A stretch of 64,000 nt of DNA from an uncultured Gemmatimonadales bacterium (GCA_963695555.1 CAVOGR010000001.1:224001-288000); one strand, 5' to 3'. Positions 17,341-63,533 are shown, counted from the stretch's first letter. The notes: generated from the letters alone by a model not told the origin. Made by a program: numbers and translations.

Positions 17341-18423
17341 CCCCAGCTCAGAGTCGCTGCTTACGAGCGCACGAACGGCTGCCCGATGCAACGCCGGTCG
17401 CAGCGTAGGTTCTACTTCATCGTCCCGCAGTCGATAATCTAACAGCGTAGTGTCTACGAAATACCGCCCTAGCGGTGTGTTGGACTTCAGCCACGTGCGA
17501 GAAGCGAACCTGGCACGATACAGCACACGCGCTGTTCTCTCGACGATATTAACCGAGCGTTCTCTTGGGGAGGTTGCCAGCTCAAAACCCATTTCTGAAA
17601 GCTGATGTCCAATCAAGGATTCGATGAGCGTCAGCTCCCTCTCAGAGTAGGCCTTTCTCCAGCGATCTACCGGCTGAAAGTGACCCCCTTGCAGTTCAGC
17701 GTTGAAGGAAGTATTTGGCTTGCTCACCGATCCAATACCGGCAGATAAGATGCGTGCATAATCCATTGGGTGGTCTATGAAGTGGCCTATTGTCGTAAGG
17801 GTTTCTTTCGGATTGGTTGCTAGGTCTCCGAACTGCACTTCCATATAGCGCGGTCCGAGCATGGCTGCATGTGCTCTCCCTTTTTCTGTCATCCACTCCC
17901 AGTATGACGCAGCCGCCACGAGGTCACGACTTTGCCCCACAGGCAGTGGACGGATGGAACGCTGCTTAGCGAGCGAGGCTGCGACATCGCGGCCATCTCG
18001 CACGATGTGGATGAAGAGAGCGTCAGGAAAGTGTGTTTGGATCTCTGGTATGTATAGAATGCTCTCAGGCGTACACTCGGCCCAGCGCCAAGCACCCTGA
18101 TCTATTGCGATGCCCTCCATCAAGAGACGCAGAAAGTCACCCGACGTGCGGCAATGTTCGCGGATTGTGTTTGAGAAGCTGGTTTCGTCGAGCCCCGAAC
18201 GGAGGAAGTACTCGCTCTTCAACCACCGACGGAGGAATGCTTCACGGTCCTTCCTCCGCTTGAATCCGCCACATCGAGGCCCTAATGTATTGAAGACATG
18301 AGACTCGAAGCGATAAATGGCGAAGCCGCCCGCCGAAAGAAGCAAATGGTACAGCCACGTTGTACCAGAGCGGGGGCTTCCTATGATGAATACAGGAGAT
18401 CTATTCATCGGCGACTCTGACAC
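17329..18423 (-). CDS. PAPS-dependent sulfotransferase (Sulfotransfer_3-like)
   Basis: VFIIGSPRSGTTWL 5'-PSB loop; IHIVRDGRDVAAS 3'-PB motif. Confidence 0.9.
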   Translation of the reverse strand: MSESPMNRSPVFIIGSPRSGTTWLYHLLLSAGGFAIYRFESHVFNTLGPRCGGFKRRKDREAFLRRWLKSEYFLRSGLDETSFSNTIREHCRTSGDFLRLLMEGIAIDQGAWRWAECTPESILYIPEIQTHFPDALFIHIVRDGRDVAASLAKQRSIRPLPVGQSRDLVAAASYWEWMTEKGRAHAAMLGPRYMEVQFGDLATNPKETLTTIGHFIDHPMDYARILSAGIGSVSKPNTSFNAELQGGHFQPVDRWRKAYSERELTLIESLIGHQLSEMGFELATSPRERSVNIVERTARVLYRARFASRTWLKSNTPLGRYFVDTTLLDYRLRDDEVEPTLRPALHRAAVRALVSSDSELGSSP

Positions 18424-45002: not shown

Positions 45003-45752
45003 ATGCGAGCCATCCTGACCTACCACTCGATCGATTCATCCGGGTCGCCGATTTCGGTGGATGCTGACGCATTCAGCCGGCACGTGGAATGGCTGGTCAC
45101 CGGGCCCGTCCGGGTCGTGGCCCTCGACGCCTTGCTCGACCTGCCGCCTGCGACGGATGCGGTGGCCCTCACGTTCGATGACGGCTTCGAGAATTTCCAG
45201 AGCGTTGCGGCCCCGCTCCTCGCCGCGCGAAACCTGCCGACCACGCTATTTGTGGTCAGCGGACACGTGGGTGGCACCAATGCCTGGGGCGGCAAGTCCC
45301 AACCAGGTATTCCGACACTTCCGCTGTTGGATTGGGATGCCCTCGGACGAGTGGCAGAGCGGGGCGTGTCCCTCGGGGTGCATACCCACACCCACCGACC
45401 GCTCCCCGACCTATCGCCCCAGCAGGTCGAGGAGGAAGTCGAAGAGTGCCGCGAGGCCATCCGCACACATACGGGGCACACGCCGACCACGTTTGCCTAC
45501 CCCTACGGAGCCGTGGACCGCGGCTCCGCCGAGGTCGTGGGGCGCTTGTTCCGACTTGGCTGCACTACGGAGCACCGCACCCTGGAACCCAGCGAGGATT
45601 CCTCGCGCCTGCCGCGGGTGGATATGTACTATTTCCGTCACCAGCCTGGCTTGCCGGGATGGGGTACTCCCGCATTTCGCCGCCGGCTCTGGACCCGCCG
45701 CGCGGCTCGGCGTTTGAGAGGTGCCTTGAGCCAGGCGGGGCTTGGACGATGA
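45003..45752 (+). CDS. Polysaccharide deacetylase (CE4)
   Basis: TYHSID, LTFDDGF, HTHTH, FAYPYG. Confidence 0.9.
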   Translation: MRAILTYHSIDSSGSPISVDADAFSRHVEWLVTGPVRVVALDALLDLPPATDAVALTFDDGFENFQSVAAPLLAARNLPTTLFVVSGHVGGTNAWGGKSQPGIPTLPLLDWDALGRVAERGVSLGVHTHTHRPLPDLSPQQVEEEVEECREAIRTHTGHTPTTFAYPYGAVDRGSAEVVGRLFRLGCTTEHRTLEPSEDSSRLPRVDMYYFRHQPGLPGWGTPAFRRRLWTRRAARRLRGALSQAGLGR

Positions 45753-46897
45753 CGGCACTTCCCTTCCGTCTTTCGGTCATCGTGCCGGTGCATCAAGGAG
45801 CGGTAGTCCTCCCGAAGTCGCTCGGCGCTTTGGTCGAGAGCGATCTGCCTCGGGATGAATGGGAACTCATCGTGGTAGATGATGCCAGCACGGATGGCAC
45901 GGCGGCAGTCGCCGCCCGCTATGCGGATACCGTGGTTACCCTGGGACGCAAGCCGCAGGGGCCTTCCTATGCCAGGAACAGGGGTGTGGAAGCGGCGCGG
46001 GGGGATGTCGTCGTCTTCATCGATGCAGACGTATGCGTGCATCGCGAAACCCTCCGACGATTTGCGAGTGTCTTCGCCGAGAATCCCGGCTTCAGCGCGG
46101 TCTTTGGGTCCTACGATGCGGCGCCGCCGGCTCCCGGGCTGGTCTCCCAATATCGGAATCTTCTCCACCACTGGGTCCACCAACAGAATGGGGGAGAGGC
46201 GGAGACATTCTGGGCAGGATGTGGAGCGATCCGGCGTAACGTGTTCTTCGAAGCCGGCATGTACGACGAATGGCATTTTTCACGCCCGCAGATCGAGGAT
46301 ATCGAACTCGGCCACCGGCTCAAAGAACTTGGGCACCGTATCACCTTGGCACCCGAGATTCAGGCTACCCATCTGAAGCATTGGACGCTCCGCAACATGC
46401 TTACGACCGATCTCAGGGATCGTGGCGTCCCGTGGACCCGGCTCCTCATCCAACGCGGCATCGTATCGAAATCGCAATCGCTCAATCTCCGCTTGATTGA
46501 GCGGGTCAATACGGTACTGGTGTGGACCGCAGCCTTGTTTGCGATCGTTGCGCTGGGCTTCCGGGATGCGCGGTGGCTTCTTCTCAGCGTTGCGTGTGGG
46601 CTACCGGTGCTGTGGTTTAACCGGCACTTGTATGCGTTCTTCCGGCGGGAACGCGGCCTTTGGTTTGCCGTCCGAGCGATTCCCTTGCACTTGATCTACT
46701 ACTTCCTCAACGGTATTGCCGTGGGGTGGGGGTGGTTGGTGCATCACGCGGTCGGTGAACCTCAGCCTGCGGTCGCCGTCGAGGCGTTCTCCGAAGTTGG
46801 GCTTCAGAGCTGGCCCCCGGTTCCACGAAAGGCGCCCGATCGCTCGGCGGACAACGAGGGGCGCGTATCCAGTCAGCGGAGAACCGATGTCACCTGA
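45749..46897 (+). CDS. GT2 glycosyltransferase with C-terminal TM region
   Basis: SVIVPV, VVDDASTD, ARNRG, FIDAD, IEDIELG; ATGA overlap with the previous gene. Confidence 0.9.
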   Translation: MTALPFRLSVIVPVHQGAVVLPKSLGALVESDLPRDEWELIVVDDASTDGTAAVAARYADTVVTLGRKPQGPSYARNRGVEAARGDVVVFIDADVCVHRETLRRFASVFAENPGFSAVFGSYDAAPPAPGLVSQYRNLLHHWVHQQNGGEAETFWAGCGAIRRNVFFEAGMYDEWHFSRPQIEDIELGHRLKELGHRITLAPEIQATHLKHWTLRNMLTTDLRDRGVPWTRLLIQRGIVSKSQSLNLRLIERVNTVLVWTAALFAIVALGFRDARWLLLSVACGLPVLWFNRHLYAFFRRERGLWFAVRAIPLHLIYYFLNGIAVGWGWLVHHAVGEPQPAVAVEAFSEVGLQSWPPVPRKAPDRSADNEGRVSSQRRTDVT

Positions 46898-46915: not shown

Positions 46916-47725
46916 GTGGCGTTGAGGGCAAGGATCGGGCGGGCCATCGAGGCATTCCACCTGCTCTCGATGTATGCCGCGGACTGGGAATCACGCCGTG
47001 CTCTGGCCGCTGCCTATCGCCGCACCCTCAGCACCACAACAGACCCAACCGAGATCGTCGTCCGGCTGCGTGTTGCCGATCTCGTGATTCCATTTCATAT
47101 GAGAATGTGTGATATCTACACCCTGGGCGAGATCCTTCATGAACGGCAATATCAGGTGCGTTCCCCCCTCCCGGAGCGCCCAACGATTATCGATGCCGGC
47201 GCGAATATCGGAGTAGCGACCCTCTGGTTCTTGGGCCAATATCCTGGTGCGAAGCTGGTTTGCGTTGAACCCGACCTCGGCAATTTCCAGTTGCTGCAGG
47301 CAAATTTTGATGCACATGCTGACGTGACCCTCGAGCAGGTTGCCCTCGGCGCGGCTGATGAATCCGTGACACTTCATCTGGCCGCGCATGGTGCGATGCA
47401 TTCAGTGGTAGATACCGAGCCAGCGGTGGGGATGCTCTCAGTTTCCCAGATCAGGCTCGACACCCTCATGGATCGTCATTGTATCAAACAGATTGATCTT
47501 TTAAAGCTCGATGTTGAAGGCAGCGAATTTGACTGCGTCCGGGGGCTCGGCGACCGTCTGGTCAACGTCAAGGTTATTGTGGGAGAGTTTCATGAGCGCC
47601 TCGTAGATGAAGACGCGTTCTACAGCTACCTTGAAGGGTGCGGCTTTCATCAAGTCCACAAGACATATTTCGGAACAGGACGTTCCGACGGCGTTCACGC
47701 ATTCGAAGTAGTCCGTGAAGAATGA
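46916..47725 (+). CDS. FkbM-family SAM methyltransferase
   Basis: IDAGANIG, VEP, LLKLDVEGSE. Confidence 0.9.
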   Translation: MALRARIGRAIEAFHLLSMYAADWESRRALAAAYRRTLSTTTDPTEIVVRLRVADLVIPFHMRMCDIYTLGEILHERQYQVRSPLPERPTIIDAGANIGVATLWFLGQYPGAKLVCVEPDLGNFQLLQANFDAHADVTLEQVALGAADESVTLHLAAHGAMHSVVDTEPAVGMLSVSQIRLDTLMDRHCIKQIDLLKLDVEGSEFDCVRGLGDRLVNVKVIVGEFHERLVDEDAFYSYLEGCGFHQVHKTYFGTGRSDGVHAFEVVREE

Positions 47726-47794
47726 CATGGGTCGTGAACGTCCTAAACGCGTGCACCCGGTGATCGCCGGGGCCGAGCGTCGAGGAGAGGTCTG

Positions 47795-48169
47795 ATGCCC
47801 AACGTCACTCCCAGCGGAGCGGGTGCCACACCGGCACCTCTGGCGTATGCCTTTGCGCCGCTCCACAAGCGTGCCTTCGGCGTCGCGATAGGACTCGCGA
47901 CGGGATTGCTGGTTGCTGGTGCAACAGCTCTGTACGTCCTTCGTGGCCCGGATGTGGGCCCCGGCCTCGCGCTCCTGAGGCACTATTTCGCCGGCTATAC
48001 CGTTTCGTGGGAAGGTGCCATCGTTGGCTTCGGATGGGGATTCCTCTCCGGATTCGTCGCCGGGTGGTTCTTCGCATTTATTCGAAACCTCACGATAGGG
48101 GTCTTGATATTCTTCGTCCGGGTGAGGTCGGAGCTGTTACAGACTCGTGACTTCCTGGACCACATCTGA
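47795..48169 (+). CDS. Small membrane protein of unknown function (paralog 1)
   Basis: GAGG RBS; 2-3 Gly-rich TM helices; similar to the next gene. Confidence 0.75.
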   Translation: MPNVTPSGAGATPAPLAYAFAPLHKRAFGVAIGLATGLLVAGATALYVLRGPDVGPGLALLRHYFAGYTVSWEGAIVGFGWGFLSGFVAGWFFAFIRNLTIGVLIFFVRVRSELLQTRDFLDHI

Positions 48170-48204
48170 TCGACTGATCCACTTCGAGACGCGGGCGGTG
48201 ACCG

Positions 48205-48498
48205 ATGGCAAATGACGAAGACGAGATTCTCCAACACGCGCTGCTGCGGCTCAATGCCCGAGCCTGGGGGATCGCATTTGGGCTGCTCCTGGGCGGAGGG
48301 CTCTTCATCGCGACCAATGTGCTGGTGCTCAAGGGCGGGCCGAATGTGGGCCAGCACCTTCAGCTCTTGGCCGTCTTCTTCCCCGGCTTCCAGGTCACCT
48401 TCCTGGGCAGCATTATCGGGTTCATCTACGCATTCGTGGTCGGTTATGCACTCGGCCGCCTCGTCGGCCTGGTGTACAACCGATTGGCAGGCCCCTAA
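48205..48498 (+). CDS. Small membrane protein of unknown function (paralog 2)
   Basis: AWGIAFG...VG..L.LL...FPGFQVT..G.I.G pattern shared with paralog 1. Confidence 0.75.
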   Translation: MANDEDEILQHALLRLNARAWGIAFGLLLGGGLFIATNVLVLKGGPNVGQHLQLLAVFFPGFQVTFLGSIIGFIYAFVVGYALGRLVGLVYNRLAGP

Positions 48499-48501
48499 CA
48501 C

Positions 48502-48527
48502 AGCAGCCGGCTCGGCGGCCGGCTGCT
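48502..48527. terminator. Hairpin between convergent genes, probable bidirectional terminator
   Basis: AGCAGCCGGC-tcggcg-GCCGGCTGCT, perfect 10-bp stem. Confidence 0.6.
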
Positions 48528-48545
48528 TGTCCCCCTAGCATCGAG

Positions 48546-49862
48546 CCGTCCTACTGGGCGGCGATGGTGAGGACTCCGGTCGCGGGGATGCTGGTGACGA
48601 GGGGCTGGCCGGCGCCGAGGGTCACCGCGGGCCGGGCGGTGCGGAGCTCGGCGGCGGTGGTATAGGTCACGATGTAGCTGCCGGCCGGGAGGCCGGTCAC
48701 GCTGAACGAGCCCCCGGCGCCGGCCTTGACCACGACTGTCCAGCGGCCGGTGGTGTTCTTGAAGGCCAGGGGCGCAAAGGTGCCGCTGGTGCTGGTGGCC
48801 TGATAGCGGACCGCGCCGAGCCGCACATCCCGGAAATATTGTTGCAGGTAGCGGGTCCGGCTGTCGGGCCGGATCACCGGCGCCGTCGGGCTGCTCACGT
48901 CGACGTGATAGTACGCCCCCCCACCGTCATCGGTGTTGTTACACCAGCCCAGGATGAACTGCTGCCAGGCCGAGTTGCGCGCCAGGGTCAGATCCTGGTG
49001 CAGGTCCTGATAGCCGCTCCCGATGTGCTCCAGCATGCTGGTGCGGATCCCGGAGGCCTGGGCCCGCGCGCCGATGGTCTGCAGGTTCCCGGTGCTGACC
49101 CCGCCGTAGCGATGGTAGGCCAGGTCGGTGAGGTATTGGGTGGCCCGGGGCACCGCGATCAGCTGGTCGAAATAGGTGATGGCTCCGCCCATGTTGGCGT
49201 TGGAGGGGGCAATGAAATCGGGCCGGTACCCGGCCGCCGCCAGCCGGTCGCCCGCGGCCACCAAGGCCTGGCCGATCTGGGTCCCGGTCCACTGGGCATT
49301 GTCGGGCTCGAGCACGAGCTCCACGGCATCGGGGGTCCAGCCGTACCGGCTGGCCAGATGCTGAAACGCGACGAGGAGGAACTCGGCATACTCGGCCGGG
49401 GCCGTCTTGTGGAACAGGGTGCCCGCCCCTTGGGTGCTGAAATCGGTGTAGTTCAGGTTCACGTAGAGCTGCTCGCCCTGGGCCAAGAGCCGGGTCCGGA
49501 TCGGGGTGACCACGTTGTCGATGTAGTAGTCGAGCTCGGTGAAGTGGAAGCCGGCCGCGTTGGCGGTGGTGGGGCTGGTGTTATCGTTGATCGTGGCATA
49601 GCGCACGGTCCGCCACTCGGCGCGGGTGATCCGCCCCGCCTGGAGATCGGCATAGTAGTCGGTCGGATTCTCGACGCCGCTCCGGACCGGGAGCCGGAGC
49701 CGGTTGATCCCCAGCTCGGTCACCACCCGGTCGTACAGCGGGTTCCGGTAATTGGCGAAGGCGACCGGATCACACTCGTCCTGCCCCGCCTGGGCCGTCG
49801 CCTCCCAGCCCGTCATCGTCTGCAGCGCCGCCGTCGGCACCACCGTGATTACCGGCCCGCTG
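48546..49862 (-). repeat. ~1.3 kb near-identical repeat (GH core), copy 1
   Basis: Offset 2039 to copy 2 and 4200 to copy 3; 17 mismatches to copy 3 counted by eye. Confidence 0.95.
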
Positions 49863-50527
49863 ATTGGCGTTGTGATTCTGATGGTGGCAGACCCTGACGA
49901 TTGAGTGCCGGCATGGGTTGCGGTGGCGGCGTAGCTGCCGGACGTCGAGCCGGCAGTGTAATAGCCGCCTGGATCGATGGTGCCGCCGGTCGCGTTCCAA
50001 CTCACGCCTACTGGCACCGTCGACCCGTCGCTCAGGCGACCCTCGGCACTGAACTGTCGTGATTCAGAGGCGTTCAGGGTCGTGGAAGAGGGTGATACGA
50101 TGATTGCTTCCAAATCGGGTGGAGGCGGAGGCACCACCTCGACACCCGAGCTGTCCTTCTTTGCCCTCCCTTTGGCTTTGCCCCGGCCGTTGCCGCTACC
50201 TCGTACCTTCGCCGCGCCGATTGCGGATGAGACGAAGAGCCCGTTGGCGCTGATGTCGCCGTTTTCCGCGCTCCACTCCATGTCAACAGCAACCGAATCG
50301 CCAGTGCCCGTCAATCCGTAGGCCTGGAATTGCAGGGGTTGGTTGACTTCGGCTACAGCTGTTCTGGGGATGATGACGAGTGTGGCGATGTCGGTACTAG
50401 GATCTTCGGGGCCGAGTCCTTCTCGGAGCTCACCAGGAGCGCAGGAGGCCAGGAGGAGCGGGCAGAGCATCCACCCCGCTATTCGAGAAGCGGCCAGCCT
50501 GCGAGACAGCTTGAAGGTATAGGTCAC
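48551..50527 (-). CDS. Lipoprotein: two Ig-like (Big_2) domains + GH30-like clan GH-A glycoside hydrolase domain (copy 1)
   Basis: Lipobox LLASC; WSAENG/WNATGG Ig motifs; QTMTGW, LGINRLR, VLEPDN, YHRY, SMLEH, QYFRDVRLGAVR, AFKNTTG. Confidence 0.8.
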   Translation of the reverse strand: MTYTFKLSRRLAASRIAGWMLCPLLLASCAPGELREGLGPEDPSTDIATLVIIPRTAVAEVNQPLQFQAYGLTGTGDSVAVDMEWSAENGDISANGLFVSSAIGAAKVRGSGNGRGKAKGRAKKDSSGVEVVPPPPPDLEAIIVSPSSTTLNASESRQFSAEGRLSDGSTVPVGVSWNATGGTIDPGGYYTAGSTSGSYAATATHAGTQSSGSATIRITTPISGPVITVVPTAALQTMTGWEATAQAGQDECDPVAFANYRNPLYDRVVTELGINRLRLPVRSGVENPTDYYADLQAGRITRAEWRTVRYATINDNTSPTTANAAGFHFTELDYYIDNVVTPIRTRLLAQGEQLYVNLNYTDFSTQGAGTLFHKTAPAEYAEFLLVAFQHLASRYGWTPDAVELVLEPDNAQWTGTQIGQALVAAGDRLAAAGYRPDFIAPSNANMGGAITYFDQLIAVPRATQYLTDLAYHRYGGVSTGNLQTIGARAQASGIRTSMLEHIGSGYQDLHQDLTLARNSAWQQFILGWCNNTDDGGGAYYHVDVSSPTAPVIRPDSRTRYLQQYFRDVRLGAVRYQATSTSGTFAPLAFKNTTGRWTVVVKAGAGGSFSVTGLPAGSYIVTYTTAAELRTARPAVTLGAGQPLVTSIPATGVLTIAAQ

Positions 50528-50556
50528 GAGTGCTTCTCCTGCGGCTGGTGGAGTCA

Positions 50557-50579
50557 GGAGGCCCTGGGGGAGGGCCTCC
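50557..50579. promoter_or_regulatory. Intergenic hairpin between GH copies 2 and 1
   Basis: GGAGGCCCT-ggggg-AGGGCCTCC, 9-bp stem, no U-tract. Confidence 0.4.
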
Positions 50580-50592
50580 CGGGGTGAGGTAC

Positions 50593-52311
50593 TTATTGGC
50601 TAATGGTGAGGACCCCGGTCGCGGGGATGCTGGTGACGAGGGGCTGGCCGGCGCCGAGGGTCACCGCGGGCCGGGCGGTGCGGAGCTCGGCGGCGGTGGT
50701 ATAGGTCACGATGTAGCTGCCGGCCGGGAGGCCGGTCACGCTGAACGAGCCCCCGGCGCCGGCCTTGACCACGACTGTCCAGCGGCCGGTGGTGTTCTTG
50801 AAGGCCAGGGGCGCAAAGGTGCCGCTGGTGCTGGTGGCCTGATAGCGGACCGCGCCGAGCCGCACATCCCGGAAATATTGTTGCAGGTAGCGGGTCCGGC
50901 TGTCGGGCCGGATCACCGGCGCCGTCGGGCTGCTCACGTCGACGTGATAGTACGCCCCCCCACCGTCATCGGTGTTGTTACACCAGCCCAGGATGAACTG
51001 CTGCCAGGCCGAGTTGCGCGCCAGGGTCAGATCCTGGTGCAGGTCCTGATAGCCGCTCCCGATGTGCTCCAGCATGCTGGTGCGGATCCCGTAGGCCTGG
51101 GCTCGCGTCCCGATGGTCTGCAGGTTCCCGGTGCTGACCCCGCCGTAGCGATGGTAGGCCAGATCGGTGAGGTATTGGGTGGCCCGGGGCACCGCGACCA
51201 GCTGGTCGAAATAGGTGATGGCTCCGCCCATGTTGGCGTTGGAGGGCGCGATGAAGGCGGGCCGGTACCCGGCCGCCGCCAGCCGGTCGCCCGCGGCCAC
51301 CAAGGCCTGCCCGATCTGGGTCCCGGTCCACTGGGCGTTGTCGGGCTCGAGCACGAGCTCCACGGCATCGGGGGTCCAGCCGTACCGGCTGGCGAGATGC
51401 TGAAACGTGACGAGGAGGAACTCGGCATACTCGGCCGGGGCCGTCTTGTGGAACAGGGTGCCCGCCCCTTGGGTGCTGAAATCGGTGTAGTTCAGGTTCA
51501 CGTAGAGCTGCTCGCCCTGGGCCAAGAGCCGGGTCCGGATCGGGGTGACCACGTTGTCGATGTAGTAGTCGAGCTCGGTGAAGTGGAAGCCGGCCGCGTT
51601 GGCGGTGGTGGGGCTGGTGTTATCGTTGATCGTGGCATAGCGCACGGTCCGCCACTCGGCGCGGGTGATCCGCCCCGCCTGGAGATCGGCATAGTAGTCG
51701 GTCGGATTCTCGACGCCGCTCCGGACCGGGAGCCGGAGCCGGTTGATCCCCAGCTCGGTCACCACCCGGTCGTACAGCGGGTTCCGGTAATTGGCGAAGG
51801 CGACCGGATCACACTCGTCCTGCCCCGCCTGGGCCGTCGCCTCCCAGCCCGTCATCGTCTGCAGCGCCGCCGTCGGCACCACCGCGATCACCGGCCCGCT
51901 GCCCGGCGCGACGACGGCCACCGTAGCTGACGTCGTGACAGTGCCGTTTGCCACTACGGCTGTGACCTGGAAGTTTCCAACCGCCGGGCCCGCGGTATAG
52001 GTACCGGCAGCGTCGATGGCCCCGCCGGTCGCACTCCAGTCGACAGTGACGCCGACCGAGTCGCCGTTCTGGGTGCGCCCGTATGCTGCGAACGGGATTG
52101 CTTGGTTGGCCTCGACGGTAGCCGAACTCGGCGTCACCACGAGGGCCGAGAGGCCACTCGAATCGGGTCCAATGCCTTCCTTCAAATCTCCCGACGCACA
52201 GGCAGCGAGCAGGCTCAGGAGCGGTCCAATGACGAGCGGGCGTAGTGCCCGTCTTCGTCCGGCCAATTCACTGGGCAACTTCATGGTCACACTTGCTGAA
52301 CCTCGACTCAT
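50593..52311 (-). CDS. Lipoprotein: Ig-like domain + GH30-like domain (copy 2)
   Basis: Lipobox LLAAC; same catalytic core as copy 1; start may be 52284 (MKLPS). Confidence 0.8.
   Translation of the reverse strand: MSRGSASVTMKLPSELAGRRRALRPLVIGPLLSLLAACASGDLKEGIGPDSSGLSALVVTPSSATVEANQAIPFAAYGRTQNGDSVGVTVDWSATGGAIDAAGTYTAGPAVGNFQVTAVVANGTVTTSATVAVVAPGSGPVIAVVPTAALQTMTGWEATAQAGQDECDPVAFANYRNPLYDRVVTELGINRLRLPVRSGVENPTDYYADLQAGRITRAEWRTVRYATINDNTSPTTANAAGFHFTELDYYIDNVVTPIRTRLLAQGEQLYVNLNYTDFSTQGAGTLFHKTAPAEYAEFLLVTFQHLASRYGWTPDAVELVLEPDNAQWTGTQIGQALVAAGDRLAAAGYRPAFIAPSNANMGGAITYFDQLVAVPRATQYLTDLAYHRYGGVSTGNLQTIGTRAQAYGIRTSMLEHIGSGYQDLHQDLTLARNSAWQQFILGWCNNTDDGGGAYYHVDVSSPTAPVIRPDSRTRYLQQYFRDVRLGAVRYQATSTSGTFAPLAFKNTTGRWTVVVKAGAGGSFSVTGLPAGSYIVTYTTAAELRTARPAVTLGAGQPLVTSIPATGVLTISQ
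50603..51901 (-). repeat. ~1.3 kb near-identical repeat (GH core), copy 2
   Basis: Direct alignment with copies 1 and 3. Confidence 0.95.
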
Positions 52312-52572
52312 TCGCGAACTCCTGTCCTTGTTCGACTCAATCTCACGAATGATGTCGAAGGCGATATGTCATTACAACTTCCAATTATTCAACAGTAGCT
52401 ACAGCAGTCACGGTCACAAGATCATACAAACAATTATCTCATATGATCTTAGCTTGTCCTGCAGTCGTGCCACTCATTGTTAAGAATTAAGACGACCACT
52501 GTCGTCTAGCTCTGCCGGTTTTGCCGCCTGGGTCGTTTCCCGTGCGAACGGCGGAGCTTCTGAATAGCTCTA

Positions 52573-52588
52573 TGCACTGATCATTCCA
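52573..52588 (-). promoter_or_regulatory. Putative sigma54 promoter
   Basis: Minus strand TGGAATGATCAGTGCA (GG-N10-GC), ~260 bp before GH copy 2. Confidence 0.45.
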
Positions 52589-52745
52589 GACTGGTCAAGA
52601 GACGATAAATATATGATTTGTATACGGTTATCGGTTGGCTCCCGGTCAACTGGGGGCGTCGGAGATTGCCGGATTCCAGGAGTTTTTCCCGGTTTGAGAC
52701 CAAGTCGGAGGGAAACTTGTTCAGGTTCGGAGTCAGGCAGGCATT

Positions 52746-54062
52746 CCGTCCTACTGGGCGGCGATGGTGAGGACTCCGGTCGCGGGGATGCTGGTGACGA
52801 GGGGCTGGCCGGCGCCGAGGGTCACCGCGGGCCGGGCGGTGCGGAGCTCGGTGGCGGTGGTGTAGGTCACGATGTAGCTGCCGGCCGGGAGGCCGGTCAC
52901 GCTGAACGAGCCCCCGGCGCCGGCCTTGACCACGACTGTCCAGCGGCCGGTGGTGTTCTTGAAGGCCAGGGGCGCGAAGGTGCCGCTGGTGCTGGTGGCC
53001 TGATAGCGGACCGCGCCGAGCCGCACATCCCGGAAATATTGTTGCAGGTAGCGGGTCCGGCTGTCGGGCCGGATCACCGGCGCCGTCGGGCTGCTCACGT
53101 CGACGTGATAGTACGCCCCCCCGCCGTCATCGGTGTTGTTACACCAGCCCAGGATGAACTGCTGCCAGGCCGAGTTGCGCGCCAGGGTCAGATCCTGGTG
53201 CAGGTCCTGATAGCCACTGCCGATATGCTCCAGCATGCTGGTGCGGATCCCGGAGGCCTGGGCCCGCGCGCCGATGGTCTGCAGGTTCCCGGTGCTGACC
53301 CCGCCGTAGCGATGGTAGGCCAGGTCGGTGAGGTATTGGGTGGCCCGGGGCACCGCGATCAGCTGGTCGAAATAGGTGATGGCTCCGCCCATGTTGGCGT
53401 TGGAGGGGGCAATGAAATCGGGCCGGTACCCGGCCGCCGCCAGCCGGTCGCCCGCGGCCACCAAGGCCTGGCCGATCTGGGTCCCGGTCCACTGGGCATT
53501 GTCGGGCTCGAGCACGAGCTCCACGGCATCGGGGGTCCAGCCGTACCGGCTGGCCAGATGCTGAAACGCGACGAGGAGGAACTCGGCATACTCGGCCGGG
53601 GCCGTCTTGTGGAACAGGGTGCCCGCCCCTTGGGTGCTGAAATCGGTGTAGTTCAGGTTCACGTAGAGCTGCTCGCCCTGGGCCAAGAGCCGGGTCCGGA
53701 TCGGGGTGACCACGTTGTCGATGTAGTAGTCGAGCTCGGTGAAGTGGAAGCCGGCCGCGTTGGCGGTGGTGGGGCTGGTGTTGTCGTTGATCGTGGCGTA
53801 GCGCACGGTCCGCCACTCGGCGCGGGTGATCCGCCCCGCCTGGAGATCGGCGTAGTGGTCGGTCGGATTCTCGACGCCGCTCCGGATCGGGAGCCGCAGC
53901 CGGTTGATCCCCAGCTCGGTCACCACCCGGTCGTACAGCGGATTCCGGTAATTGGCGAAGGCGACCGGATCACACTCGTCCTGCCCCGCCTGGGCCGTCG
54001 CCTCCCAGCCCGTCATCGTCTGCAGCGCCGCCGTCGGCACCACCGCGACCACCGGCCCGCTG
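52746..54062 (-). repeat. ~1.3 kb near-identical repeat (GH core), copy 3
   Basis: Direct alignment with copies 1 and 2. Confidence 0.95.
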
Positions 54063-54433
54063 CCGGGCGGCACCACGACAACCGTCGCCGAGCCGAGCAG
54101 TCCGTCGGCGCTGGCGGTTACGGAGAAGTTGCCGGCGGTGGCCCCGGCGGTGAAGCTGCCGGACGCATTAATGGCGCCACCGGTGGCCGTCCAGGCCAGT
54201 GTTGGGCAGGCAACGGTCTTCCCGGTCGAGTCCAGGCAATCCGCGACGAAGCTCCGGGATTGACCTGGCTCCATTGCAGCTGCCTCGGGTGAGATCAGGA
54301 TGTGCGCCACGCTCGGACTGGGGCCGTTCAGGCCCGGGGCACCATCGCCGCAGCCGCCGCACGCTCCGATTCCACAGATGAGCGCGGCCAAACTGGCGCG
54401 GAATCTGCTGGTCTTACCACCCGTGAATGACAT
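52751..54433 (-). CDS. Lipoprotein: Ig-like domain + GH30-like domain (copy 3)
   Basis: Lipobox IGAC; WTATGG Ig motif; same catalytic core. Confidence 0.8.
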   Translation of the reverse strand: MSFTGGKTSRFRASLAALICGIGACGGCGDGAPGLNGPSPSVAHILISPEAAAMEPGQSRSFVADCLDSTGKTVACPTLAWTATGGAINASGSFTAGATAGNFSVTASADGLLGSATVVVVPPGSGPVVAVVPTAALQTMTGWEATAQAGQDECDPVAFANYRNPLYDRVVTELGINRLRLPIRSGVENPTDHYADLQAGRITRAEWRTVRYATINDNTSPTTANAAGFHFTELDYYIDNVVTPIRTRLLAQGEQLYVNLNYTDFSTQGAGTLFHKTAPAEYAEFLLVAFQHLASRYGWTPDAVELVLEPDNAQWTGTQIGQALVAAGDRLAAAGYRPDFIAPSNANMGGAITYFDQLIAVPRATQYLTDLAYHRYGGVSTGNLQTIGARAQASGIRTSMLEHIGSGYQDLHQDLTLARNSAWQQFILGWCNNTDDGGGAYYHVDVSSPTAPVIRPDSRTRYLQQYFRDVRLGAVRYQATSTSGTFAPLAFKNTTGRWTVVVKAGAGGSFSVTGLPAGSYIVTYTTATELRTARPAVTLGAGQPLVTSIPATGVLTIAAQ

Positions 54434-55429: not shown

Positions 55430-55430
55430 C

Positions 55431-56825
55431 ACGCTCGTCGGGCGGAATTTTTTCGCCCTGGGGCTCGGCGACGCGCTGGCGCGCGGTATTGCCTTCGGCG
55501 CAACAATCTACCTGGCGCGCGTTCTCGGCGTCGGGGGATACGGGGTCGTTGCTTTAGCGGCTGCTGTCACGCTCTATCTGGCACAACTTGCCGACTTCGG
55601 GGTCGAGACCCTCGGTATCCGTGAAGTCGCCGAAGACCCCAACGCCATCGATGAGCGCGCCCCACCCATTCTCCTAGCTCGAATCCTGATCGCCGCGGGG
55701 TTGATCGTGATCACCCTGCCGGTCGCGCTGCTCGTATTGCCGCAACCGGAAGGCGCCGTGATCGCGGCCTACAGCCTGACGCTCATTCCGATCGCCGCCA
55801 GCACCCGATGGGTCCATCTTGGCCTGGAATCGGCCCGCCCGGTCGGCATAGCGCGCACCATCGGCGAGTCGGTGATGATCGTTCTGGTGCTGATCCTGGT
55901 GCAACGAACTGGCGACATCTGGTCGGTGCCGTTGGCGCAGTTTGCGGGAGAGTCGGCGGCGGCCCTCCTGCTCCTGGGCTTACTCGCGCGCCGAGGCTTT
56001 CGACTTCGAGCCGTCTGGGCCCCCGAACGGGTGCGGCCTGTGTTCCGCCGTGCCTGGCCGCTCGTAGCCCATGGGTTGCTCGGCCTTCTCATCTTCAATT
56101 CGGATCTCGTGTTCCTGCGGCTGTTTCGCGACCTCGCGAGCGTCGGGTACTACGCCGCGGGTTATACCCTCATCAGCTTTCTGTTGAACCTGGGTGTGGC
56201 CTATGGCATGGCCTTGCTGCCGACCTTGACTCGGCTCGGGGCCAGGACGACCGAGGAGCGGAATCTCTACCACACGGCCCAGGCCCAGGTATTCACGACC
56301 GGCCTTCCCGTCGCCTTGGGGGGGGCGCTTCTTGCCGTCGAACTCATGCAGCAGGTGTTCGGCCTGAGCTACTTGCCGGCAGGTGCTGCACTGAAGGTGT
56401 TGATTTGGTCGGTTCCGGTCTCGCTCTTCCGCAATGTCGCCATTTCCGCGCTGGTCGCGCGCGGCCGCCAGGACCAGGTGCTCCGGACCACCACCGGCTC
56501 CACGGTGCTGAACGTGGTGCTGAATGTTCTCCTCATCCCGCGGTACGGGATCATGGGCGCTGCGTGGGCGACTGTGGTCACGGAGCTCCTCCGCACGATC
56601 CTGGCACTCCGATTCGCGGCAGAGGAGGGCCTGGTGGTCCTGCCACTTCGCCGGCTGGGGCGGGCCACGGTGTCGGGGCTAGCCATGGTTGCGCTCCTGA
56701 TTGTGTTCCGCCCAGCGAACCTCTGGGCGGCGATTGCCTTTGGTGGGAGCGCCTACCTCGGCGTCCTGACACTGGTGGGCGGGGTGCAGTTCCGTCGCGG
56801 CCAGCTGCCAGCCCTCCGGGTCTAG
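55431..56825 (+). CDS. wzx: Wzx/RfbX-type flippase; no canonical start codon found
   Basis: Frame open from 55413 reading ..VGRNFFALGLGDALARGIAFGATIYLARVLG...ADFG; VGYYAAGY, LIPRYGIMGAAWAT. Confidence 0.85.
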   Translation, partial: TLVGRNFFALGLGDALARGIAFGATIYLARVLGVGGYGVVALAAAVTLYLAQLADFGVETLGIREVAEDPNAIDERAPPILLARILIAAGLIVITLPVALLVLPQPEGAVIAAYSLTLIPIAASTRWVHLGLESARPVGIARTIGESVMIVLVLILVQRTGDIWSVPLAQFAGESAAALLLLGLLARRGFRLRAVWAPERVRPVFRRAWPLVAHGLLGLLIFNSDLVFLRLFRDLASVGYYAAGYTLISFLLNLGVAYGMALLPTLTRLGARTTEERNLYHTAQAQVFTTGLPVALGGALLAVELMQQVFGLSYLPAGAALKVLIWSVPVSLFRNVAISALVARGRQDQVLRTTTGSTVLNVVLNVLLIPRYGIMGAAWATVVTELLRTILALRFAAEEGLVVLPLRRLGRATVSGLAMVALLIVFRPANLWAAIAFGGSAYLGVLTLVGGVQFRRGQLPALRV

Positions 56826-57395: not shown

Positions 57396-59222
57396 GTGAC
57401 AGGCGCTGTCGGGGCACGTGAGCCTCGTCAAAGCGGTGTGCGTCCGTCACACCTCTTGGCTCTTGGCGCATGGCTGGGTTTGGCCTACGGCTTTCTGGAG
57501 GCACTCGAGTTCTTCGTTCTGGGCCTGGTGCCCGGTGCCCTTGCCTGGCGCAACGGGAACTCCGCGCCCGTCTTCCTCGTCGCGCCAGCATTCTACATGG
57601 CGCTTTATGCGTTCCTTGGCCTCCTGACAGCACTGCTTTCACGAGCGAGGCCCCAGTGGCGGTGGGACATCATCCTGGCCGCCGCGCTCGTCACGCTGTC
57701 GGGATACCTGGGCGCGAGCCTGCAGGGCCAGCTGTTCTCGCCTATGGTGTCCGTCATCTTGGGTGTTGGCATGGGCGCGGTGACCATTCGGACACTGCGC
57801 CGCCACGCGGCTCTGCTTCCCCGGGTGATTCGGTCCCTTCCATGGCTCACGGCAGGGGTCTTGGGCATCGGCGTCCTGGCGGTGGGCAGTGGTGTGGCAC
57901 GGGAACGATTGGCCCTCAGCTCACTCCCAGATCGCGCACCCGACGGGCCCAATGTGCTGGTCCTGGTCCTGGATACCCAGCGGGCCGATCATTTGGGTTT
58001 CCAGGGCTACCGCCGGCCCACGTCGCCCGCCATGGATTCCTTTGCGGCGCAGGGGACCATTTTCACGAATGCAATCAGCAACTCATCGTGGACGCTGCCA
58101 TCGCACGCTTCGCTGTTTACCGGTCGTCCGGTCAGCGAGCATCGGGCGGGTCAATTGCGCCGTCCGTTTCTCGGGCGCGCCTTTCCGACTGTGGCGGAAG
58201 CATTCACGAGGGCAGGTTATGTCACAGCGGGATTCACGGCGAATACGTTTTGGGCGGGACGCCAGACCCGGCTCAATCGCGGATTTGTCCACTGGGAGGA
58301 TTTCTATCGCAAGCCGGGTGACGCGTTGGTTCGCACCGTCCTCGGCCGGAAGATCGCCTACGAGTTCCTTCCCAAGTTCGGCCAGATCGACATTCCTGGC
58401 CGAATGCGCGCCGAGGACATCAATAATCGGCTCTTCCGATGGCTCGATCGAACCAAGCGCCGTCCGTTCTTCGCATTCCTGAACTATATGGACGTACACG
58501 GCCCGTACCTGCCACCAGCCTCCTACGCGGGACGATTTGGCGGGCCGCGCACCCACGTCGGAAAGACCATTGAACTTGGGGCCGTCACAGACGAAACAGC
58601 CCTGCCACCGCCCGAACTCCTACGGGATTGGGTCAATCAGTACGATGAGTCGATCCTGGCGCTCGATGCCGGTGTCGGCGCCTTGCTTCATGGCCTCGAG
58701 AGACGCGGCATCCTGGATAACACGGTAATCGTGCTGACCTCGGATCACGGCGAGAGTTTTGGCGAGCATGGCATGATTTATCATGGGAACGGGCTTCACC
58801 GGGATCAGGTGCATGTGCCGCTCGTTATCCGGTACCGGCCGGCCGTGGCAGCCGGTGTCCGTGAATCGCGCGCCGTGGGAATTCATCAGATCCCGGCGAC
58901 GGTCATGGAACTCGCCGGACTGCCGACGACAGCCTTTCCCGGACCCTCGCTCTTCACCGAGAGCGACGCTCCTGTCTTGGCGGAAGTCGGCTTCCGGCCG
59001 CAAGTACCAACGTCGTGGCCGACGGCACATGGGTGGGTCAAGTCACTGACGACCCGGCGCTGGCATTTTATCCTTCTCGAGAGTGGCCAGGTGGAACTCT
59101 ATGATCTCGCCGTGGACCCGGAGGAGACGACCGACTTGGCTGCTCGCCCCGAGCTTGCGGAGACGGTCGAGGAACTACGGACCCTGGTGGAACGCCGTGC
59201 GCCGGCGGATTTTCGGCCATGA
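57396..59222 (+). CDS. Membrane-anchored alkaline-phosphatase-superfamily (sulfatase-like) hydrolase/transferase
   Basis: ~5 N-terminal TM helices; [55 protein letters not shown]. Confidence 0.88.
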
Positions 59223-61099
59223 AGAAAGACGGAGCGACGGGAAGAATGAAGGCTGAGCCTCGGGAAGAGACGCCATCGGTTGCCACACGCGGGGCGACCG
59301 ACACGACTCCGCTGGAGCGAATGCCCATAGTCATTGCCGGGCATGTCGATCACGGGAAGAGCACCATCATTGGTCGCCTGCTCGCGGATACGGGCTCGCT
59401 GCCCGAGGGCAAGCTCGACCAGGTGCGAGCCTCGTGCGAGCGGAATGCGAGGCCCTTCGAGTACGCATTTCTCCTGGATGCGCTCAAGGACGAACAGGCC
59501 CAAGGCATCACCATCGACTCGGCACGCGTTTTCTTTAAGTCGGACCGGCGCTACTACATCATCATCGACGCCCCAGGCCACATCGAATTCCTCAAGAACA
59601 TGGTGACTGGTGCGGCACGGGCCGAGGCCGGATTGCTCGTGATCGATGCCCAGGAGGGCGTGAAGGAAAATTCACGCCGCCATGGTTACATGATGTCGAT
59701 GCTCGGCATCCCGCAGATTGCCGTGCTGGTAAACAAGATGGACTTGGTGAAGTACGACCGCCGGGTGTTTGATGAGATCGTCGCCGAGTACGGCGCATTC
59801 CTGCAGCAGATCGACCTGCGGCCGACCTATTTCATTCCGGTCAGTGGCCGGGAGGGAGAGAATGTCGCCCACGCGGGGGCTCACATGCCTTGGTACGAGG
59901 GCTCCACGGTGCTGCAGGCGCTCGACGAATTCGCAGCCCCTCAGCCTCCGGTAGACGGGCCATTCCGGATGGCGGTCCAGGGCGTCTACAAGTTCACCCA
60001 GCACGGTGATGACCGGCGGATCGTGGCCGGGACCGTCCAGAGCGGCACCGTGCATGTCGGGGACGAGGTGGTGTTCTATCCCTCCGGCAAGAAGAGCCAC
60101 GTCCGGTCGATCGAGGCGTTTCACCGGCCCGAGCAGCACGCGGCGAGGGCCGGACAGGCAACCGGCTTCACCCTCTCGGAGCAGATCTTCGTTTCCCGCG
60201 GCGAAATCGTGGCGCGGGCGTCCGAGGCACACCCGAAGGTGACCAGCCTCATCCGGGCAAATCTGTTTTGGTTGGGGAAGGATTCGCTGATCAAGAACAG
60301 GGACTACACTCTGAAGCTGGGCACGACTCGCGTGCCGATGCGCCTGGAACAGGTCCATCGGGTAATCGACGCCTCGGATTTGAGTGCCATGGCAGACACG
60401 GACCGGATCAACCGCCACGACGTCGCGGATTGTACCCTCAAACTGAAGCGGGACATCGCGTTCGATCTCGCAGAAGATATCGCAGCCACCAGTCGGTTTG
60501 TCGTGGTGGACGGCTACGAAATCCGCGGCGGCGGCATCATCCGGGAAGCGCTCGAGGATCAGCAGGCTTGGGTGCGCGAGAAGGTGCTCCTGAGGAACTA
60601 CAAGTGGGAGCCCAGCATCATCGCGCCGGAGCATCGTGCGGAAAAATATAATCAACGCTCGACACTCATGCTCATCACCGGCGCCCAGGAAGCCGACCGG
60701 AAGTCGGTCGCCAAGGGCCTCGAGTCACGGCTCTTCGATGATGGCCGGGTGGTGTATTTCCTGGGCATCGGCAACGTGCTCTACGGCGTGGACGCCGATA
60801 TCGAGCGGACGGTCGAGAACCGGCAGGAGCATCTCCGGCGGCTGGGCGAGATTGCCAACCTGATGCTCGATGCGGGCGTCATCCTGGTTGTCACTGCCGC
60901 CGAGCTCACGCACCAGGAGCTGCAGCTGATCCGGACGTCCGTCGGCTCGGACCGGATCGAGACGGTGTGGGTCGGGGAGAACGTGACGACCGACCTTGCC
61001 TACGATATTCTTCTGTCCGAGCATGAAACCGTGGACGAGCAGGTGTTCCGTCTCAAGAGCCACCTGCAGGAAGCGGGCATCATTTACCGGCCATGGTGA
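59219..61099 (+). CDS. cysN: Sulfate adenylyltransferase subunit 1 with a degenerate C-terminal APS-kinase-like domain
   Basis: [27 protein letters not shown]; the C-domain has [10 protein letters not shown] in place of the P-loop. Confidence 0.9.
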
Positions 61100-61884
61100 A
61101 ACCATTGGATGCGGGAGCGATGATCGAGATCTCTCACGAGAGCCTCCAGCGGCTCGACGCAATTGCCCGGGAGGCAGGCGCCGCGACGTTGCGGCACTAC
61201 CATTCCGATACCGTGGTGGAGGAGAAGGCGGACCGTTCCCCGGTGACGGCGGCGGACCGGGAGGCACATCGAATCATACAGGCTGCGCTCATCGCGTGGG
61301 ACCCGGCGGTCCCGGTGGTGTCCGAAGAGGGAACAATTCCGGACTACAGCGTGCGCCAAGGCTGGGAACGGTTCTGGCTGGTGGATCCGCTCGACGGCAC
61401 CAAGGAGTTCTTGAAGGGGAATGGCGAGTTCACCGTGAATATCGCCCTGATCGAGCAAGGGGTTCCCGTTCTGGGCGTCGTGTTCGCACCGGCACGGGGG
61501 CTCATGTACACGGCGGGTCGGGGGCTCGGGGCGTGGAAGCGTGACGGCCAGGCAGTCGCCAGCCGAATCCAATCTCAACCACCTGAGCCTGGCACACCGC
61601 TCACGGTGGTGGAAAGCCGCTCGCATCCGTCCGACGCCCTCGAGGCCTATCTCAAGACTATCGCGGTCGGCCGCCGCGTCCAGGCGGGCAGTTCACTCAA
61701 GTTCTGTTGGGTCGCCGAGGGCAAGGCCCATGTGTACCCGAGGCTTGGGCCGACCATGGAGTGGGATGTCGCCGCTGGGGATTGTGTCTTCCGGAATTCG
61801 GCGCCCTCAGGCGAGCGTACTTCGCCGCTACGATACAACATGCCCGATCTCCGTAACCCCTCGTTCGTGATAGGGATCGACTGA
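61093..61884 (+). CDS. cysQ: 3'(2'),5'-bisphosphate nucleotidase
   Basis: [37 protein letters not shown]. Confidence 0.93.
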
Positions 61885-61914
61885 CGACATGCGCACACCA
61901 ATCCGGCGCCGCCG

Positions 61915-62643
61915 ATGACGGGACCGTACCGTGAATCGCATGCGCGTGCGATCGCCAAGACCATCTCGTGGCGGATTCTCGCCACGTTCACCACCACGCT
62001 CCTGGTCTGGCTGTTCACGCACGAGATCGGCCTGGCTGCCACCGTTGGAGGGTTGGAAGCGATCTCGAAGCTGGTGCTGTACTACGCCCACGAGCGTGGC
62101 TGGGATCACATCCGCTTTGGGCGGCGCGAGATCGAGCCGGCCGTCCTCTGGTTCACCGGCCTCTCGGGCTCGGGCAAGAGCACCATCGCGGAGGAGGTAT
62201 TTGCCCAGCTCAAGCGCCGCGGGTACAAGACGGAGCGCCTGGACGGCGACACGATCCGAAGCATCTTCCCGCAAACGGGGTTCACCCGCGACGAGCGTGA
62301 TGCGCACATCCGCCGGGTGGGCTATCTCGCGAGCAAGTTGGAACAGAACGGCGTGTTCGTCGTGGCATCGTTGGTATCACCGTATCAGGATTCTCGAGAC
62401 TTCGTCCGCAGCCTCTGCCGGAACTTTATCGAGGTGTATATCTCCACGCCGCTCGACGAATGCGAGCGACGTGATGTCAAGGGATTGTATGCTCGCGCTC
62501 GCCGGGGCGAGATCAAGAACTTCACCGGCATCGACGATCCGTATGAATCGCCGTCCGATGCCGAGGTCGTGATCGACACGACCAACGTCAGCGTGGACGT
62601 CGCAGCTGCGCAGGTGTTGTCACAAATACAGATACGCGGTTAG
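61915..62643 (+). CDS. cysC: Adenylyl-sulfate kinase with an N-terminal DUF2061-like membrane domain
   Basis: KTISWR...YYAHERGW N-domain; [32 protein letters not shown]. Confidence 0.92.
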
Positions 62644-62651
62644 AGGGCTCC

Positions 62652-63533
62652 ATGGATCATTTGGATCAACTGGAAAACACGAGTGTTCAGATTCTTCGCG
62701 AGGCGTACGCGAATTTCAAACACCTGGGCATGCTGTGGTCGATCGGCAAGGACAGCACGGTGCTCTGTGGCTAAGCCGGAAGGCCTTCTTCGGCCACGTG
62801 CCGTTTCCGCTCATTCACATCGATACGTCATTCAAGATCCCGGAAATGATCGAGTACCGGGACCGGCTCGTCGCGGAGTGGCACCTCAACTTGATCTATG
62901 GGCAGAACCAGGTCGCGCTCGCCGAGAAGCGTACCTTTCCCGATGGCGCCGTCGACCGGCTCACCTGCTGCGGTCTGCTCAAGACCGAAGCGCTCAAGAA
63001 CACCTTGAGCGGGGCAGTGGCCCCGGTATCGCTTCAATCACGTGAAGAAGACCTACGAACTGGACAGCAATACCGAGCCGTTCACGGGGGTTATCGTTGG
63101 AGCCCGGGCGGACGAAGAGGGCAGCCGGTCGAAGGAACGATATTTCTCTGCGCGGACGGACCAGAACGAGTGGGACGTTGCCGACCAGCCGCCGGAATTC
63201 TGGAATCAGTACAAGACCGAGTTTGCCCCGGGGACCCACGTGCGGATCCACCCCTTGTTGGATTGGACGGAGCTCAATATCTGGGAGTACATCGAGCGGG
63301 AGCAAATCCCAACGGTGTCGTTGTACTACGATCAGGGCGAAGGCAAGCGCTACCGCTCGCTCGGATGCTGGCCGTGCACCAATCCGGTCGATTCCTCAGC
63401 GTCGGATGTTGAACAGATCATCGAGGAGCTCCGCACGGGCAAGTTCGCCAACATCGCCGAGCGATCCGGCCGGGCGCAGGACAAGGACGACGGCGGCGGG
63501 CTGGAAACGCTCCGGCGTGACGGATATATGTAG
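62652..63533 (+). CDS. cysD: Sulfate adenylyltransferase subunit 2 (two frameshifts, ~62765 and ~63015)
   Basis: [39 protein letters not shown], terminal GYM*. Confidence 0.9.

Follow-up and report, generated by a model that had tools for sequence, protein, structure and literature searches.

Paralogous genes kept alike in one part by gene conversion are familiar from babA and babB of Helicobacter pylori, the opa genes of Neisseria and the duplicated tuf genes. The glycoside hydrolases of family GH30, such as XynA of Erwinia chrysanthemi (1nof), XynC of Bacillus subtilis (3kl0) and AcXbh30A (7n6h), combine a barrel with a tightly packed side beta-sandwich, the latter formed by an N-terminal strand together with the C-terminal part of the chain. 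In clan GH-A the acid/base lies after strand 4 of the barrel and the nucleophile at the end of strand 7, and PslG is a clan GH-A barrel with a beta-sandwich. Glycoside hydrolase genes are often found within exopolysaccharide biosynthesis clusters according to the abstract of PMC9075953, and the class is also described in that of bioRxiv 10.1101/032714. We discuss here three tandem genes, g1, g2 and g3, in a stretch of 64,000 nucleotides (nt) from an uncultured Gemmatimonadales bacterium (GCA_963695555.1, CAVOGR010000001.1:224001-288000), the whole of which we call the window, and whose genome we refer to as G000. The genes encode lipoproteins in which a nearly uniform GH30-fold domain, the head, follows three very different N-terminal parts, the stalks, each made of a signal peptide and immunoglobulin (Ig)-like domains, and they lie within an island of genes for glycan synthesis.

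The three genes are intact open reading frames (ORFs) on the minus strand: g1 at 48551-50527 (658 amino acids (aa), GTG start), g2 at 50593-52311 (572 aa) and g3 at 52751-54433 (560 aa). A repeat finder gives three copies with start-to-start spacings of 2039 and 2161 nt. An earlier note on this DNA had described about 1.3 kb of near identity with an abrupt start at Ser-Gly-Pro-Val (S-G-P-V), and that description holds. In a three-way alignment the segment common to the three genes is 1299 nt long, without indels and with 32 variable sites, and it occupies 48564-49862 in g1, 50603-51901 in g2 and 52764-54062 in g3. Nucleotide identity over the segment is 1282/1299 for g1-g2, 1282/1299 for g1-g3 and 1269/1299 for g2-g3 (97.7-98.7%), and the head proteins agree at 428/435, 431/436 and 425/435 residues for the same pairs. 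The 5' onset of identity falls at the codons for S-G-P-V, and its 3' limit is the stop codon, with g1 and g3 still matching for a few bases further, to 48546, and g2 departing from both about 12 nt ahead of the stop codon. Over the 433 codons 21 of the 32 variable sites are synonymous, which together with the lack of indels fits real selected genes better than sequencing noise. Upstream of the boundary the stalks of g1 (49863-50527), g2 (51902-52311) and g3 (54063-54433) show protein identities of 31-43% among themselves, so the high divergence that had been claimed for them is also correct. A search of the G000 genome (3.57 Mb in 14 contigs, 87% complete) found no copies of the head besides these three.

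Lipoboxes can be read by eye in the translations as L-A-S-C in g1, L-A-A-C in g2 and I-G-A-C in g3, with the invariant Cys present, in agreement with the lipoprotein nature proposed earlier, and the N-terminal 36-45 residues are disordered in the AlphaFold models. The start M/VTYTFKLSRRLA of g1 is shared with the metagenome protein P0010 and with one gene of G002, a genome of the same genus. The g3 model has a predicted local distance difference test (pLDDT) value of 88 and a predicted template modelling (pTM) score of 0.77; after the disordered N-terminus it shows a single Ig-like sandwich at residues 44-120 and then, beginning near residue 125, a (beta/alpha)8 barrel that has a beta-sandwich at its side. 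In the g1 model two beta modules precede the barrel, Ig-A at 47-111 (pLDDT 51-70) and Ig-B at 139-219 (pLDDT about 90), with a disordered Gly/Lys linker between them; in agreement with this the g1 stalk matches the g2-type stalk twice, through residues 4-98 and 130-221. The two Ig domains that had been announced for g1 and the one for g3 are therefore both present in the models, and g2 has one Ig-like stalk domain. The three genes are thus paralogous lipoproteins, in each of which a lipobox signal peptide and either one or two Ig domains of Big_2-like type precede a GH30-fold head.

The GH30-like character of the head, also proposed in the earlier note, is borne out by structural comparison. 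The Foldseek matches listed (ranks 1-50, with gaps) consist of GH30 entries together with SrfJ, which is GH30-like, and one exported protein of Bacteroides that has no annotation; the best is at E 1e-21. VIA-align matches the g3 model to 1nof with Z 35.9 and a root mean square deviation (rmsd) of 2.6 Å over 348 residues, gives Z 34-36 for GH30 subfamilies 7, 8 and 10 over model residues 125-560, and has GH30 xylanase-type entries in the rows listed above Z 33. A profile built from 34 family members finds GH30 chains at E 3e-7, solely through the C-terminal sandwich, and Big_2-type Ig domains through the stalk at E 8e-8, and the sandwich family PF17189 is found in 26 of the 34 members at E <= 1. 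The neighbours of the head in the protein atlas are GH30 and GH59 clusters. The barrel models PF02055 and PF14587 and the sandwich model PF17189 gave no match in g1, g2 or g3 at E <= 0.1, and none in g3 at E <= 1; a single-sequence search of PDB sequences reached E 0.11 at best, to 1nof.

Three glutamates, E305, E309 and E402 in g3 numbering, are invariant in two alignments, of 34 and 36 sequences. By the secondary structure of the model E309, in the motif L-E-P-D-N, follows directly on predicted strand 4 and E402 stands where strand 7 ends, and their spacing of 93 residues resembles the 88-89 that we take to be usual in GH30-8. E309 would then be the acid/base and E402 the nucleophile, and the heads are probably retaining glycosidases that use these two residues. 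The head is best described as a distant GH30-fold clade, rather than as a demonstrated member of GH30, and it belongs to a large GH30-related clade without characterised members. Of 8000 proteins scored, at least 923 match the family at E <= 1e-3, and in the species genomes of GTDB 197 relatives were confirmed among 318 candidate stretches, with head identities of 44-55% across phyla; the 78 loci kept from these relatives come from several bacterial phyla and from a few archaeal metagenome-assembled genomes (MAGs).

The uniformity of the heads is due to concerted evolution by recombination confined to the heads, which the earlier note had put forward as an alternative and which the trees, the mosaic of variable sites and the approximately unbiased (AU) tests support. 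Close homologues were cut at the S-G-P-V boundary and separate trees were built for heads and stalks, with support from the Shimodaira-Hasegawa-like approximate likelihood ratio test (SH-aLRT). The head tree groups by genome: g1, g2 and g3 together (SH-aLRT 99), the tandem pair G002a and G002b together (100), and the metagenome proteins P0009 and P0010 together (100). The stalk tree groups by type: g3 with its orthologue in G004, another genome of the genus (99), Ig-A and Ig-B of g1 each with the P0010 counterpart (100 apiece), and g2 within a g2-type clade of 12 rows (97) with the stalks of G004 and G002b. A grouping of the heads by stalk type is rejected in AU tests (p 1e-80, 3e-54 and 4e-49), and so is a grouping of the stalks by genome (p 2e-10, 6e-52 and 4e-7).

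The pairwise figures follow the same pattern. P0010 is 93% identical to g1 in the stalk and 73% in the head, and P0009, with a g2-type stalk, and P0010, with a g1-type stalk, share 430/432 head residues and 45% of the stalk. The tandem heads of G002 are 89% identical to each other in protein sequence and 68-70% identical to the heads of G000, and the nucleotide identity of the two G002 copies climbs to about 90% inside the same boundaries as in the G000 segment. In protein identity the g2 stalk has 90% to the stalk on contig C193 of G004 and 45% to that of G002b, and the g3 stalk 93% to its G004 orthologue and 61% to that of a further genome, G001. All three stalk types predate the genus and have been conserved from one species to another. 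G000 and G004 are collinear over 3697 nt that include a UbiA gene (95.7% nucleotide identity), the g3 stalk (96.2%) and the g3 head (91.9%); the head is more diverged than its own stalk, as would be expected if heads import differences from their paralogues. Homogenisation of heads within G004 stands at 94.9% nucleotide identity over 663 nt.

Within the G000 segment the distribution of variable sites is mosaic. We set apart three sites that lie at the 5' edge, among them position 13, which is also private to g3; g1 has private differences at two 5'-edge sites and none beyond that edge. The other 29 sites comprise 14 private to g3 (segment positions 120-279 and 837-1210) and 15 private to g2 (positions 493-809, plus one at 1287), and they fall in order into seven g3-private, 14 g2-private, seven g3-private and one g2-private, that is, four runs (P = 5e-6). 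In block 120-279 the G004 orthologue of g3 carries the g3 allele at 6/7 sites, and g1 and g2 share the other allele. We propose that the three ancient stalk types were inherited vertically as separate genes, and that homologous recombination between tandem copies (gene conversion, possibly unequal crossing-over) would repeatedly overwrite the 1.3-kb head, so that each genome comes to have one head sequence on several stalks. The sharp S-G-P-V boundary would be the place where recombination tracts stop, as the stalks beyond it are too diverged to pair, and g1, with a head that reads as a patchwork of g2-like and g3-like tracts, would seem to be the most recent recipient.

With regard to gene context, the genes around the array on the plus strand encode GT2 and GT4 glycosyltransferases, a nicotinamide adenine dinucleotide (NAD)-dependent epimerase, a polysaccharide deacetylase, an FkbM methyltransferase, a UbiA-family prenyltransferase, a Wzx-like flippase, a sulfatase/LtaS-family membrane protein and a flavin adenine dinucleotide (FAD) amine-oxidase-like protein. 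As these flanking genes are on the plus strand, the antisense placement of the array inside a glycan-synthesis island was correctly described. The island also has CysN/C-, CysQ-, adenosine 5'-phosphosulfate (APS)-kinase (CysC)- and CysD-like genes at 59219-63412 (+) and a sulfotransferase gene (PF13469, E 2e-23) at 17329-18423 (-). The sulfotransferase and sulfate-activation genes make a sulfated polysaccharide the likely product, and to judge from its genes the island probably makes a sulfated glycan. The island is syntenic in G002, and the position of the array in both G002 and G004.

A scan of the neighbours in 12 diverse distant loci (two more were dropped for size) found glycan-assembly genes beside the head gene in 10 of them, so that the head genes are within, and conserved with, polysaccharide-assembly gene clusters, as would be expected for a PslG-like role. 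In six of the 12 (L030, L036, L038, L040, L052 and L058) the next gene downstream is for a conserved protein of 676-751 aa with weak similarity to PMT_2 (GT-C), which is 42-59% identical across phyla and has two homologues in G000, at C1:289511-291625 and C1:306268-308373, 1.5 and 18 kb past the end of the window. FAD amine-oxidase-like and sulfatase/LtaS-family genes also recur near the GH30-like genes at distant loci, and the GT-C-like, FAD oxidase-like and LtaS-family neighbours may form with the GH30-like head a cross-phylum glycan cassette. With glycan-assembly neighbours both at the array and at the distant loci, and by analogy with known systems, the likeliest role of the heads would be extracytoplasmic processing or trimming of the cell's own glycan. 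The suggestion of an undescribed capsule remodelling or release system goes too far, as hydrolases in exopolysaccharide loci are a known class, of which PslG is an example, and these data show no new kind of system.

It has to be asked whether the identity of the heads could have arisen in some other way. An artefact of assembly or polishing, with one or two genes inflated to three or with diverged heads made alike by consensus polishing, is very improbable. It would be in keeping with the incomplete 14-contig assembly (87%), for which source reads were not found in the public runs searched, and with frameshift-like breaks in other island genes (copy B of a beta-helix pair described below, and G002 copy a). 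However the three stalks are different, each with its own junction and with reading frames intact throughout, the differences between copies are mostly synonymous (21/32) with no indels, G004 is collinear at all three positions, and the boundaries recur in the tandem pair of G002. In G004, contig C193 carries the g3 orthologue followed by a g2-type stalk and ends 32 nt into the next head, and contig C37 is collinear with 47055-49209 of the window and stops mid-head at the g1 position; it is usual for short-read assemblies to break in near-identical repeats. Four read runs were also compared, all from foreign populations (sediment and estuary metagenomes) with short contigs, in which uncovered parts are uninformative. 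Contigs there break at 50603 and at 51901-51912, and the g1 and g2 junctions are both present: in run X5 the sequence of one contig leaves the head at 51901 and goes on with 30 nt that match the g1 stalk without a difference, and contigs from runs X3 and X5 bridge the g2 junction. Nor can we give any real credence to an old duplication without recombination, in which very strong purifying selection kept the heads alike and the stalks evolved freely. The heads are indeed well conserved across phyla (44-55% identity), but this account is already contradicted by synonymous sites that are near-identical too (21 synonymous differences in 433 codons), by orthologous heads that differ at 8% of nucleotides (G004) or about 31% of amino acids (G002) when paralogues differ by 1-2%, by the g3 head being more diverged from G004 than the g3 stalk, and by the AU tests that reject heads grouped by stalk type. 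A single recent duplication or unequal crossover, which put one head behind pre-existing stalks with the few differences arising later, has in its favour that G002 has a g2-type and a g3-type gene at the locus and no g1-type gene, its g1-type stalk being elsewhere on another head, so gene content does change by larger events. We nevertheless consider it quite improbable: the alternating g2-private and g3-private blocks (P = 5e-6) need several tracts, in block 120-279 g1 and g2 share alleles absent from G004 g3 at 6/7 sites as if one had copied the other, and homogenisation is unequal (89% aa in G002, 94.9% nt over 663 nt in G004, 430/432 aa in P0009/P0010), which argues for repeated events.

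As to function, the alternative is that the heads scavenge foreign glycans as food and are unconnected with the product of the island, being encoded there only by chance. Such a role would suit the mostly degradative activities of the GH30 enzymes of solved structure (xylanases, beta-1,6-glucanase, glucosylceramidase), the high conservation of the heads from phylum to phylum, and the two Planctomycetota loci that have no biosynthetic neighbours. We regard it as unlikely, although worth keeping in mind, given that 10/12 distant loci are among glycan-assembly genes, that the same GT-C-like gene is directly downstream in 6/12, that the array position is syntenic in G002 and G004, and that the scan of flanking genes turned up none for sugar uptake. 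Some observations weigh against processing of the island's own glycan by recombination-homogenised GH30-fold enzymes, and should be set beside the evidence for it. Pfam and NCBIfam scans of g1, g2 and g3 found no catalytic domain, the barrel going undetected; E309 is preceded by Leu, at a point where clan GH-A enzymes usually have Asn-Glu-Pro; and the two putative catalytic glutamates were assigned from their position in a predicted model. The groups for the AU tests were named post hoc, with both trees already seen, which somewhat weakens the p-values, and P0009 and P0010 are from different source collections, so that their common genome is an assumption. Public runs were searched for the source reads and the best holds 0.27 of the sampled words, so that the array in G000 and the precise identity values are taken here as the assembly gives them. 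Two of the 12 distant loci, both in Planctomycetota, are without glycan-synthesis neighbours, a head identity of 44-55% across phyla is unusually high for an enzyme that would follow a strain-specific polysaccharide, and surface exposure of g1, g2 and g3 is an assumption. With all of this taken into account, we put at about 0.7 the probability that these are paralogous GH30-fold lipoproteins with ancient stalks and recombination-overwritten heads that probably process the island's own glycan.

Some further features of the array and its surroundings can be recorded here. The spacer between g3 and g2 (52312-52750 on the minus strand, 439 nt) is A+T-rich within a G+C-rich genome, and has a terminator-like hairpin at 52507-52490 and promoter-like sites at 52460-52433 and 52411-52384, all of them consensus matches. 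One foreign contig from X5 is without 271 nt of this spacer (52395 to 52667), so its length differs between populations. In G002 the g3-type stalk of copy a (L013, about 9391-9664) is split between two frames near 9479, so that either the stalk is decaying or the sequence has a frameshift error, and the protein called for this copy, P0014 (467 aa), is without a signal peptide. The ORF for the Wzx-like flippase at 55701-56825 (+; region 55430-56825) has 374 aa and begins at position 112 of the Pfam model, and its G002 counterpart has 487 aa; the start may have been mis-called or the 5' part frameshifted. The deacetylase and GT2 genes are separate overlapping ORFs at 45003-46897 (+), and in G002 there is one fusion ORF for 633 aa (L013:13831-15732), so either the two genes are truly split or one of the two assemblies has a frameshift.

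The window also includes a second homogenised pair, which, like the orthology of the stalks across species and the presence of the g1-type stalk on another head, goes beyond the earlier note. Two putative secreted enzymes whose heads are beta-helix-like are encoded here in tandem, at 13796-15478 and about 15700-17340 (+), the beta-helix assignment being based on a weak Pfam match (E 1e-4) and repeats read by eye. The middle of the two genes, about 650 nt (14410-15070 and 16278-16938), is 92-98% identical and the flanks are far less alike. In the second gene, copy B, the frame is broken by two single-base indels near 16040-16160, and no signal peptide can be recognised. On contig C8 of G002, at a locus syntenic with 10-17 kb of the window, a g1-type stalk (66% identical, with the same first 12 residues) precedes a right-handed beta-helix-like domain; the gene is in tandem with a second one, and the two heads show no difference in the 205 residues that can be compared up to the end of the contig. 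It is the G002 orthologue of the second beta-helix copy that carries this two-Ig lipoprotein stalk, and a remnant of it was sought upstream of copy B in the window and not found, the upstream region showing just a resemblance to copy A in its signal peptide, at 13805-13906 (E 2e-4). On this sequence evidence stalks also move between head families. In a family-wide search Ig-stalk-like matches were found in 77/151 genomes, the unpublished G152 included, and these are mostly generic Big_2 repeats.

The idea in the earlier note that one activity is displayed at different heights or with different partners is compatible with these data, as stalk types are conserved between species. It can be taken further, to a modular stalk-and-head system in which diverged stalks, differing in where they sit in the envelope or in what they associate with there, are loaded with one recombination-synchronised head, the homogenisation is itself selected and more than a side effect of sequence similarity, and the head with its GT-C-like, FAD oxidase-like and LtaS-family neighbours marks an undescribed cross-phylum pathway for envelope glycan. 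We think this rather unlikely. If it were true, any shift in head specificity that follows a change in the (sulfated) glycan of the cell itself would reach every stalk together, and the stalks would be re-used on the beta-helix heads, which themselves show tandem homogenisation.

The array is a well-documented natural case in which only the enzyme domain is homogenised, the anchoring domains being old and distinct, and the arrangement recurs in several related lineages. Such arrays break short-read assemblies, as seen in G004, so that the copy number of these enzymes will be under-counted in MAGs, and a tree made from just the catalytic domain would give the false impression of recent duplications within each lineage. 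As a GH30-related clade usually found beside glycan-assembly genes, the heads are also a reasonable target for enzymology.

With regard to novelty, narrow literature searches found no paper on GH30 in exopolysaccharide clusters for this clade or arrangement, on gene conversion in tandem lipoprotein paralogues of this arrangement, or on this clade under Gemmatimonadota sulfated polysaccharides, although searches as narrow as these do not show that nothing is in print. Gene conversion among bacterial paralogues and hydrolases in polysaccharide loci are each well known already. What is new is the combination, that is, an uncharacterised GH30-fold clade, three ancient stalks with one synchronised head, its occurrence in several lineages, and a stalk that is also on a second head family.

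In comparison with the characterised GH30 enzymes (1nof, 3kl0 and 7n6h), the head has the same barrel and side sandwich, the sandwich likewise made from an N-terminal strand and the C-terminal part, with Z 34-36 and rmsd 2.4-2.9 Å over 330-390 residues, a C-terminal sandwich recognised by profile at E 3e-7, and, by the predicted secondary structure, an invariant Glu after strand 4 and another at the end of strand 7. It differs from them in being only 14-20% identical, in a barrel undetected by Pfam and NCBIfam, in the Leu before the putative acid/base Glu in place of what we take to be the usual motif, in its fusion to a lipoprotein Ig stalk, and in its location among biosynthetic rather than degradative genes. 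PslG, PelA, PgaB and BcsZ are, as g1, g2 and g3 probably are, secreted or periplasmic glycosidases encoded in a polysaccharide-synthesis cluster. However those are single-copy and of other families, and here there are three copies on different stalks, with a putative activity on the cognate polymer. With babA/babB, opa and tuf the array shares the pattern of one gene part kept alike and another different, with similarity within a genome greater than between species. In those cases the products are adhesins or translation factors, which we take to be often at dispersed loci. In contrast the homogenised part of g1, g2 and g3 is an enzyme domain, and the variable part is an anchoring stalk that is also found on another enzyme family.

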